Below are positions 45,609 through 48,600 of a stretch of DNA of 64,000 bases, piece after piece. A model generated the notes under the pieces. It searched no databases, was not told where the DNA came from, and worked only from the letters and a program-made list of their open reading frames with translations. This DNA comes from Bilabrum cf. latius (lineage: Eukaryota), in contig OZ237752.1 of assembly GCA_965178125.1 (NCBI GenBank), positions 744,001-808,000 on the forward strand, written 5' to 3'. Position 1 is the stretch's first letter, and each line of letters opens with the position of its first letter. A program made the position numbers and the translations under genes.

Positions 45609-48600
45609 ATGGCGCTTTCAGCTGGCTTCGAGGGTGTCTCAGACTTCGTGCTGTTCGTGAGATCTCCTTCCGATATTTTGTGATGAGACGCTCCGAATCA
45701 GAAATGGGTCCGAGAGTTTCATTTTATTATACGGCTCTTTCGTACGCAGGTAGCATACATGGCAATTTCGGTCCAGCTGTGGACATTTTCTCAAGCAGTG
45801 GCATCAAGCTATGAGCGACTGCCCAAGAGCCCAGCCTTTGTGCACGCCCTACTTTGTTTCGAGTGAGTGATGCCAGGTTTGCAGTGACCTGAACTTCTAC
45901 TTCCTGGCTCGTATCGGTATGTCATCTGCTGTTGCACAATTCAATACGAACCATGTCGCAGAGCTTTCATCGCGAGCTGTGGCCTCACGCACCTTGGAAT
46001 GGGTCTATCGGTCACCATTCTCCGCGGTTCTGCGACAATGCTGTGAGTGTATTGTATCCTAGTCGCTGAATGCTGCCTGATCCTTGCCGCAAGCTATGTA
46101 GCTAGAAACTATCACTGTTCCATCTCGCAGCATCGTGAACGGAACTGTTAAAACTATAACAGCAATCGTAAGCGCGTACACAGCGATGGTTCTTTGGACC
46201 CTTTTATCGGATGCATCTCGCGCTTTGATAAAGCACATCGAATCAAACTTGGTGGAGAAGGCCGAGGCGGACGAGAGCAGGGTTCGAGCAAACCAGCTCA
46301 ACAAGATCTAGATCCGACTGCAAAGTCTTGCAGACAGTATTCATGAGTCTGGAGATATCCAAGTCCTGTTTGACGCCGCTGCCAGGGGCCTCGTCAAGCA
46401 TGCTGGCTTTGGAATCGCTGGCGCGTTTTTGCCGACCGTGCTCCCTCGCCGTAAGGACTTTACCACCGGTCAAGAAGTCAGCGCCGTGAGCCAGTCGAGC
46501 TCGAACAGCAATCTTCAAAGTGGCAGCCAATCGCCTCCGTCTCGCCGCCCGCTGCTTCTGGTCGAGCCAGCCAGGCACGAGCGGGAGCCTGCCCACGAAC
46601 TCGACCGTGTGCTGGCTGGAGGAGGCCTCGCCCCGCCGCAGAATGACCAGAGCGCTGGCGGCGCTAGCAGACTCCGCAACCTCGCCAACTCTGCAGAGAT
46701 ATCCGAGGACAGTCACGATACGCCTGGTGGTATGCAGGCCGACTAGAAGAAGGCAGGCGCCTTCGCGACTGCCAAGGGCAACAAGGCCAACAACAGGAGC
46801 CCGGATGCGCTTAGTAGGGTGCTTGGCGGCCCCTCGGGTCTATTGTCCCCTTCCGGAGACGATGTGAGCAGCTCCGAGGGCGAGGCGGGGCGCGGTGATA
46901 CCTACAAAGTGTCTAATCCCGCCCGAGTCTCTGCTTCCAGCTCCAACAGGCACTCCGGGACTCGCCTCGATAGGGGCGCAGCTGCCAGCGTGGACAGCAG
47001 CGTGGGCCCTCCCGGTCCGGTGGGCTATGCTTGGGCGTCTGAACAGACTGATGGAGATCTGAACGGCTCTATTTCAGAGTCGGACGCCTCTGTCGCCTCT
47101 GTCGCCACCCAAGTGCACTAGGCAGTGTCGGAGTCCGAGTCTGGCACGGACAGCGATGTGGAGACTGGCATGTTCCTGGGCAGGGCCAGCCTGCTGCCTG
47201 GGGCACAAGCGAGGGGCAATGGCCCTTCTCACACCATTGAGATGGTAAGCCTGACTCAGTTCGACAAGGCCGACAGGCACCACGCTGCTGGCGGCAGTCG
47301 GGGCAGGAGGAGAGGAGGCGGCGCCCGAGGTGCTGGACACGGGTCTGCTTGGTCTAGGGGAGGCAGGAGGCGAGGCTCGGGGCGAGGCAGAAGCCAAGGC
47401 GTTCCCATGTCTTCAGCTGGTTTGCGGGACAAGTCGATTGGCAGCCAGCATTTCGGGCTTGCCGGCTCCAGCACAGGTCGGTCAGTGCTGCCCCCTAGAG
47501 GCGGAGACCGAACCACTGGGATCGCCGATGCAGAGACGATGGACACGGCCGAGTGCAAGGAGCGGCTTGAGAGGCTGTTGCTGTAGGACTCCATCGTGCA
47601 CGTGCCCGGGCCCCTCGTCCGAGCCCTCTTCGGCGAGGTGGCGGGAGGCCCCGCGCCTGCGCATGGCCGCAAGGAAACCGAACACTTTTTTGCGCTGAGG
47701 CTGTTTCTGCCGTCACGAGCCGCCTCTTCGATCGCGGAGCATCTCGGTCTTACCACGATTCGTCCTGCTGGCATTTCTCAGTCATCGTGGCGGAAGCATC
47801 AATCCTCTAGTGCCGGTGTCGGTGCCGATCAGGGAAGCGCAGCCGCGAGAGAGCCACCGAACCTCCCTGAAGTCCGGTCGCATGTGGTTGATCTATCAGT
47901 CCGTCAGCAGTGCGCCTAGGTTCTGGCTGATACGCAGCAGAGCCGCTCAGTCAAGACCCGCATCTTTGACCCCGCAAAGTTCCTGCAGCAGCAGAGGGAG
48001 CAAGAGGAGGAGCTCGCAGCAGCCGATGAATTCGGTGACGTCGATCCGAGCACTGGTGAGCAGCTCAAGCGTGACAGGTCAACGACAGGATCGAGTAGCT
48101 CCGGCAGCTATCAAGCAAATCGTTCTCATTCTTCATTTATGGTGAATCACCGCCCGATGGTGCGAGGGGCCCGAGGCAAGGGGTCGTCTCCGAGGGACAA
48201 GTCCCGCGAGCAATCGGCTGCTTCCGCTGGCGGTTCATATGCATCGAGCCAACACGACGAGGAGCAGGACCGCAAGACGCGGGCAATGAACAGGAAATCT
48301 TTCTCCTCCCAGGACATCGTGATCGGTTTCCTCCTTGTCAAGAGCTCGTCCGCCAGTCTGAAGCGGGGGGAGAGACAGCTGCTCGAGGGCGTCCGTGGCA
48401 CGCTGGAAATAGCTGTGCTGCGCATCGACGCTCGTGAGGCCGAAAGACATTTCCTTCTCCGTACTGCAGAACTGGAGAAAGAACGGCGGGAGGCCTCGCA
48501 GACCTTCCTCGCCATGATGAGCCGTGAGTACTCTATTGCTCTACGTCTACGCCACCCTTGCTGCACTGCCGGTGCTCGTAGACGTCTATTTGCCCATAAT

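Follow-up and report, generated by a model that had tools for sequence, protein, structure and literature searches.

An expressed five-exon gene from Bilabrum cf. latius encodes a hybrid histidine kinase with a divergent ETR1_N-like sensor domain

A spliced hybrid kinase gene in a eukaryote that reads TAG as glutamine

The DNA analyzed here, referred to throughout as the window, is a 64,000-nucleotide stretch from Bilabrum cf. latius (contig OZ237752.1, positions 744,001 to 808,000 of the forward strand), and positions 45609 to 53312 of it carry the coding part of a nuclear gene that is expressed, has five exons, and belongs to a eukaryote reading TAG as glutamine. That this is a real gene whose N-terminal domain is a divergent homologue of the ETR1_N family (PF25487) is, in our assessment, highly probable. 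The reading that we favor, and consider reasonably likely, is that the product is a hybrid histidine kinase in which this domain serves as a divergent sensor of the copper/ethylene type. The further proposal that the protein binds both copper and ethylene is a tentative one, made by analogy with characterized members of the family.

Joining 45609-45656, 45750-45862, 45962-46042, 46131-48523, and 48658-53312 gave a single 7290-nt frame encoding 2429 amino acids, with 15 in-frame TAG codons, no TAA, and a single terminal TGA. The gene is present in nine sequencing runs from four studies, and contigs of X1, X5, X6, and X7 were aligned to positions 45300-53500. All four GT..AG joints (45656>45750, 45862>45962, 46042>46131, and 48523>48658) were found in one X5 contig and in one X7 contig, representing two studies, and the X1 and X6 contigs crossed the introns uninterrupted, with none of the four joints in either. 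All five of the X5 records that aligned consisted of exons only, at differing depths, which is a transcript-like pattern. X5 record 5 (2874 nt, with no differing letters) covered 45364-45656, 45750-45862, 45962-46042, and 46131-48517, and X5 record 8 was unbroken over 48658-53237. Because the X5 contigs run unbroken across both long exons, neither of these contains a further intron.

A first-pass annotation of the window, made from its letters alone, had placed the first three splice junctions, for which it proposed a check against transcripts, and had claimed that splicing brings together three hydrophobic transmembrane stretches. The three junctions proved to be exact, each joint being present in both X5 and X7 contigs, and joining the exons restored a single frame with all three stretches, the third of which sits within a long open reading frame (ORF) at 46081..48687. 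The sole upstream ATG within the part of the transcript seen lies at 45558, in frame and preceded by a TAA stop, and a start there would lengthen the product by 17 residues, one of them encoded by TAG; the protein is 2429 residues long, or 2446 with a start at this upstream ATG. The parts of the gene and of its product are as follows.

45364..45608, + strand: 5' untranslated part as far as seen (X5 record 5 starts at 45364)
45609..45656, + strand: exon 1, with the ATG and the start of helix 1 (Asp12 at 45642-45644); joint 45656>45750 in X5 and X7
45657..45749, + strand: intron 1, 93 nt, GTGAGA..CGCAG, from contig joints
45750..45862, + strand: exon 2, completing helix 1 (Tyr19, Ile22, Ser23) and carrying loop 1 and the first part of helix 2
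45863..45961, + strand: intron 2, 99 nt, GTGAGT..CGCAG, from contig joints
45962..46042, + strand: exon 3, with the helix 2 core FEAFIASCGLTHL (Ile57; Cys60 at 45978-45980; His64 at 45990-45992), then loop 2
46043..46130, + strand: intron 3, 88 nt, GTGAGT..CGCAG, from contig joints
46131..48523, + strand: exon 4, with helix 3 (Lys88 at 46150-46152), a Ser/Gly/Ala-rich region of ~750 residues, and the first half of the kinase H-box
48524..48657, + strand: intron 4, 134 nt, GTGAGT..CGCAG, joint 48523>48658
48658..53312, + strand: exon 5, with the remaining part of HisKA, HATPase_c (which contains a long insert), ~820 linker residues, and the receiver; TGA at 53310-53312
45636..46206, + strand: ETR1_N-like three-helix sensor domain, spliced residues 10-106, with helices at residues 10-30, 45-65, and 84-106
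48520..48680, + strand: H-box SHELRTPLH, residues 878-886, straddling intron 4, located by Pfam and by its motif
49002..49964, + strand: ATP-binding motifs, namely the N box LLLNLAGNSSKF, G1 DTGIGI, F box FEPFQQAD (second Q = TAG), and G2 GGTGLGL
52608..52952, + strand: receiver domain (Pfam Response_reg, exon-5 residues 1317-1431), with VLVVEDN, FLDLYMP (acceptor Asp), AMTAS, and VNKPAK

Intron 4 interrupts the codon of the phospho-accepting His of the kinase. The in-frame TAG codons include 5 in the Ser/Gly/Ala-rich region of exon 4, whose composition was measured over residues 200 to 820, and 10 in exon 5.

Homology of the N-terminal domain to bacterial ETR1_N domains

A search of bacterial genomes with the degenerate pattern F.AFI..CG.THL returned at least 120 stretches, where by our own estimate about 2 would be expected by chance. 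After 8 had been excluded for an incomplete stop-free span, 112 complete domains of 124 residues made up the bacterial set; all of the bacterial stretches scanned against Pfam, 69 of 69 and 73 of 73, belonged to PF25487. A hidden Markov model (HMM) of the 112 domains matched residues 10-109 of the spliced N terminus with 54.1 bits (E 8.7e-19, calculated for one target), and the highest score reached by 1000 composition-preserving shuffles was 11.9 bits. As the window itself matches the selecting motif, we ran a control in which these 13 residues were masked and obtained 28.2 bits; removal of exon 3 left 32.8 bits.

When the spliced domain was compared with 69 bacterial domains by hhalign, the probability was 98.3% (E 2.6e-14, 88 columns), and exon 4 alone reached 95%. 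Every one of the 112 bacterial domains was matched by BLASTP at E<0.1, with 43% identity over 100 residues (E 9.5e-12) for the best, and the 15 best-scoring domains were 33-43% identical over ~100 residues. The helices at residues 10-30, 45-65, and 84-106 align with the three bacterial ETR1_N helices and have mean Kyte-Doolittle values of 1.45, 1.56, and 1.13, respectively; the loop between helices 2 and 3 is likewise hydrophobic (1.43), leaving the exact helix ends uncertain. Within exon 4, positions 68-95 of the 97 in the Pfam ETR1_N profile align with residues 2-29 of that exon. Among solved structures, the domain profile had no match at E <= 1. On the HMM and hhalign scores, the ETR1-type sensor domain proposed at first pass is very probably a true homologue of PF25487 ETR1_N.

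Residues of the predicted ligand site

The correspondence between window and Arabidopsis ETR1 numbering, which we take to be that given below, derives from the bacterial columns and from spacing. Each count is the share of the 112 bacterial domains that have the window's residue in the aligned column.

Ser11: 92/112
Asp12 (ETR1 D25 position): 108/112
Tyr19 (Y32 position): 111/112
Ile22 (I35 position): 107/112
Lys88 (K91 position): 84/112, with Arg in 24
Thr91: 110/112
Ser95: 112/112
Thr98: 106/112

Ile57, Cys60, and His64 (the I62, C65, and H69 positions) are also retained in the window, in columns that were fixed by the selection pattern. The first-pass claim that six of the seven binding positions are kept, with Ser for P36, and that K91 is kept too, therefore holds with the 112 bacterial members as the yardstick, rather than the Arabidopsis sequence.

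Wang et al. are said to have found in 2006 that Y32 is needed for ethylene binding in ETR1. For the other positions, it is reported that Cu(I) is bound by Cys65 and His69 of ETR1, that Asp25 is critical, and that Asp25 and Lys91 are coupled (PMC10266040), with further backing for the roles of C65, H69, D25, and K91 in PMC11819568; I35, P36, and I62 are reported as indispensable for the binding of ethylene (PMC6586836).

The kinase, the receiver, and the linkers

In exon 5, Pfam detected HisKA (2.8e-14), HATPase_c (5e-19), and Response_reg (2.1e-18), and the H, N, G1, F, and G2 boxes are all intact, as are the Asp, Thr, and Lys motifs of the receiver. The two-component receptor that had been suggested from the letters alone is thus, by these Pfam matches, a hybrid kinase with HisKA, HATPase_c, and receiver domains. 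Linker that is rich in Ser, Ala, and Gly and has no Pfam domain makes up about 1900 of the 2429 residues, and it is retained in the spliced contigs. Judged by eye, the sequence on either side of a low-complexity insert resembled two halves of a GAF domain; the candidate had no Pfam support and was dropped.

Glutamine at TAG codons

An open-frame scan of the window revealed very long frames once TAG was counted as a residue. Two of the 10 TAG codons of exon 5 fall in regions that can be aligned with 120 kinase homologues: one occupies a variable column, and the other, at exon-5 residue 419, is the invariant Gln of the kinase FEPFxQAD box, a position that is Gln in 151 of the 164 aligned kinase high-scoring segment pairs. 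This one conserved site indicates that TAG specifies glutamine, and at that site the first-pass recoding of TAG to CAG is upheld. TAG serves as a sense codon across the whole window, where six-frame counts were 1096 for TAG, 407 for TAA, and 1680 for TGA. The stops of 12 long frames that were checked were TGA in 10 cases and TAA in 2; in this small sample, TGA is a stop codon and TAA probably is one as well. Scans for tRNA genes and Rfam families found neither within the 64-kb window, and no suppressor tRNA was seen there.

Few relatives in very large protein libraries

With exon 4 as the query and 1.84 billion representatives as the target set, phmmer gave 5 matches at E <= 0.001, all of them fragments of 50-138 amino acids with 65-100% identity; no plant, fungal, or bacterial receptor was among them. 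Two of the five derive from the window's own protein, split at TAG codons (100% and 99% identity), and the other three (P0243, P0244, and P0245) are related short fragments with 86%, 65%, and 72% identity, respectively, to parts of exon 4. One of these three terminates at the same TAG as the window protein, and in P0244 and P0245 ..FLAMMS is followed by 'RE', the residues to be expected if a GTGAG donor at the site of intron 4 were left unspliced. The shared TAG end and the read-through at intron 4 suggest that paralogues or sister species have the same gene structure.

A search of 5.8 billion proteins with the kinase part found only generic hybrid kinases, mostly bacterial where they were named, at 31-57% identity, and there was no full-length copy among the matched proteins of 852-2713 amino acids. 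Comparison of the spliced N-terminal ORF with longer proteins gave 34 candidates, none at E <= 10, and an alignment covering helix 3 and the linker, used to scan metagenome contigs, gave 130 pattern matches, none of which was confirmed.

Alternative readings of the gene and its sensor

Several observations weigh against a copper/ethylene-type sensor encoded by an expressed gene. At the level of the domain, the sequences in the HMM had been picked by a motif that the window itself matches; hhalign gave exon 2 alone a probability of just 2.6%; Pfam ETR1_N scored exon 4 alone at 17.7 bits (E 0.0044), the family cut-off being 27; and exons 2 and 3 singly gave no Pfam match. At the ligand site, the position of ETR1 Pro36 is Ser23 in the window; of the 112 bacterial domains, 103 show Pro in this column, 5 show Ser, and 4 show Ala. 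In the loop between helices 2 and 3, W..P.Y (108, 104, and 111 of 112) has been lost, as has the Pro that follows helix 3 (110/112), and loops 1 and 2 are 8 and 5 residues longer than those of the bacteria. Cys is missing both from the first 45 residues and from the 17 that the upstream start would add, and Pfam found no GAF domain in exon 4 up to an E of 10. Finally, the library types of X5 and X7 are guesses ('RNA? (probably DNA)' for X5 and 'RNA?' for X7), with no RNA source on record; even an intron-less DNA copy must originate from this spliced message.

Beyond these guessed library types, nothing speaks for the view that the locus is not a functional eukaryotic gene at all and that the resemblance is fortuitous, the DNA a bacterial contaminant, or the locus a pseudogene. 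We consider this extremely improbable: contigs from two studies lack all four GT..AG introns, the 7.3-kb frame is unbroken and has 15 in-frame TAG codons, a codon that the neighboring eukaryotic genes carry in frame too, and no shuffle scored above 11.9 bits, whereas the real sequence reached 54.1 bits.

The changes at the ligand site bear more directly on another possibility, that the domain is a true ETR1_N homologue which still holds copper but has drifted to a weak affinity for ethylene or to another ligand, such as a small unsaturated or copper-reactive molecule, or the copper/redox state itself. Such drift would fit the Ser at the Pro36 position, the longer loops, and the loss of several columns that are nearly invariant in bacteria, and the lineage is isolated, as the mere five short-fragment phmmer matches indicate. 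That small changes can retune binding is suggested by a natural Asp25Asn variant of ETR1, which is reported to be functional with an affinity ~100-fold lower (PMC11971883 and PMC10266040). Set against this are the retention of six of the seven binding positions together with the Asp-Lys pair and the fact that 9 of the 112 bacterial members naturally have Ser or Ala in place of the Pro. On balance, we regard drift to a weakly bound or different ligand as somewhat unlikely.

It is also conceivable that the three helices are only a membrane anchor and dimer interface and that the kinase is governed through its long cytosolic regions, by phosphorylation or by partners. The ~1900 residues of linker and the failure to detect a GAF domain would be in keeping with such an arrangement, but the buried polar residues Asp12, Cys60, His64, Lys88, Thr91, Ser95, and Thr98 are kept, and a pure anchor would be expected to lose them, so that we judge this explanation very unlikely.

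Returning to the favored reading, a sensor kinase of the copper/ethylene type, its operation can be sketched by analogy with the known receptors. Cu(I) would be held by Cys60 and His64 of helix 2, aided by Asp12 of helix 1, and the copper would serve as the binding site for ethylene or a small unsaturated molecule like it. The link between Asp12 and Lys88 could then relay the change to helix 3, which may in turn alter autophosphorylation at the His of the H-box, and the phosphate would be expected to pass from that His to the protein's own receiver Asp and on to a putative HPt protein and response regulator.

Comparison with bacterial, plant, and other eukaryotic ETR1-type proteins

The window protein shares SD..AY..I, F.AFI..CG.TH, and K..TA..S..TA, distributed over three helices, with bacterial PF25487 proteins such as Synechocystis SynEtr1 and Azospirillum AzoEtr1. 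It also shares with them a histidine-kinase output, the commonest architecture among the 73 bacterial ETR1_N ORFs that we scanned (46 have HATPase_c, 36 HisKA, and 15 a receiver, the end of the locus cutting some of the ORFs short). In contrast to the bacterial genes, that in the window is eukaryotic, with four introns and TAG as Gln, and its product lacks an N terminus of the HGxCYLW type, has Ser at the Pro position, has lost W..P.Y, contains low-complexity linker amounting to ~1900 residues, and has both loops extended, by 8 and 5 residues. A bacterial member with all seven residues binds ethylene, according to PMC11819568. Among the bacterial matches listed, F.AFI..CG.THL extends beyond the cyanobacteria to groups including Bacteroidota, Planctomycetota, Acidobacteriota, and Proteobacteria, and two N-terminal subtypes, HGxCYLW and WPxRWxCGxW, can be told apart by eye.

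With Arabidopsis ETR1, the window protein has in common the order of parts at both ends, that is, a three-helix sensor, a histidine kinase, and a C-terminal receiver, and it appears, through the bacterial columns, to keep the equivalents of D25, Y32, I35, I62, C65, H69, and K91. It differs in having no detected GAF domain between sensor and kinase and a Ser at the P36 equivalent. The N-terminal Cys pair of plant ETR1, which forms the dimer disulfide, is absent from the window protein, which is about three times as long as its plant counterpart. Genes of the CTR1, EIN2, and RAN1 types were not among the Pfam hits of the 64-kb window; no genome-wide search was made for them.

The first-pass annotation was right that ETR-like domains exist beyond plants, but it overstated the novelty of such a find. 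Homologues have been predicted in early-diverging fungi, in Capsaspora (CowczHK2), in Acanthamoeba (AcastHK27/28/35), and in the diatom Fistulifera (FsolaHK12-15) (PMC6324907, PMC5285503), and the gene in the window therefore adds a member to a known type. As described in these two papers, the fungal and protist proteins resemble ours in being hybrid kinases with three N-terminal helices that carry the ethylene-perception residues, as judged by sequence analysis only. They are reported to keep every essential residue, whereas the window has Ser at the Pro position, a comparison that we made by description only. None of these proteins was among the exon-4 phmmer matches at E <= 0.001.

A non-exhaustive look at the literature found no ethylene-binding test of a protist ETR-like protein, and the gene described here could help to test whether the ETR-like proteins scattered over the eukaryotes bind ethylene. 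It is notable for the lineage it comes from, for its genetic code and size, and for the Pro-to-Ser change. The Ser at the Pro36 position makes a good comparison case, although by itself it leaves the current picture unchanged. A more far-reaching reading, which we consider unlikely, is that a deep-branching eukaryote with TAG as Gln may have kept a fully competent receptor of the His-Asp phosphorelay type, in which the Pro-to-Ser change in helix 1, the remodeled loops, and the absent disulfide have retuned the copper site and which senses a non-ethylene ligand, or ethylene with very different kinetics. If that were true, the protein would offer a naturally occurring variant with which to study the determinants of ligand affinity in a structurally unsolved domain. 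The case is also of interest in that a multi-exon gene and three exact junctions were predicted from raw sequence, in a setting where TAG codons conceal genes from standard ORF calling, and in that it provides an expressed kinase with an ethylene-binding-type domain from a lineage without close relatives in very large protein libraries.

Neighboring genes in the window

The window is GC rich and eukaryotic, with a GC fraction of 0.54-0.66 in 2-kb steps. Pfam matches identify five other genes.

1..2097, - strand: Ulp1-type protease, with in-frame TAG
2629..5919, + strand: CD36-family protein, with in-frame TAG
6459..11735, + strand: myotubularin-like phosphatase with a PH domain (9e-102), with in-frame TAG
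14453..15838, - strand: APH-family phosphotransferase, with in-frame TAG
62199..63998, + strand: STK36/Fused-type protein kinase (Pkinase, 3e-75)

Immediately downstream of the ETR1_N kinase gene, the frame at 53661-55940 (+ strand) matches no Pfam family; the N-terminal half that it encodes is repetitive and extremely rich in Ala and Gly, and hydrophobic stretches come after it. Upstream, the frame at 24406-45147 (+ strand) runs uninterrupted for 6913 codons, 65 of them in-frame TAG, to a TGA end, and is without a Pfam family at E <= 0.001. Judged by eye from the translation, its protein has a Cys-rich stretch near the C-terminal end and then several hydrophobic stretches, and the product may be a giant surface or membrane protein. 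The best database relatives of the STK36/Fused-type kinase, at 60-68% identity, are a mix of stramenopiles, animals, and plants, and the tail of this kinase holds a long Gly-Ala dipeptide run.

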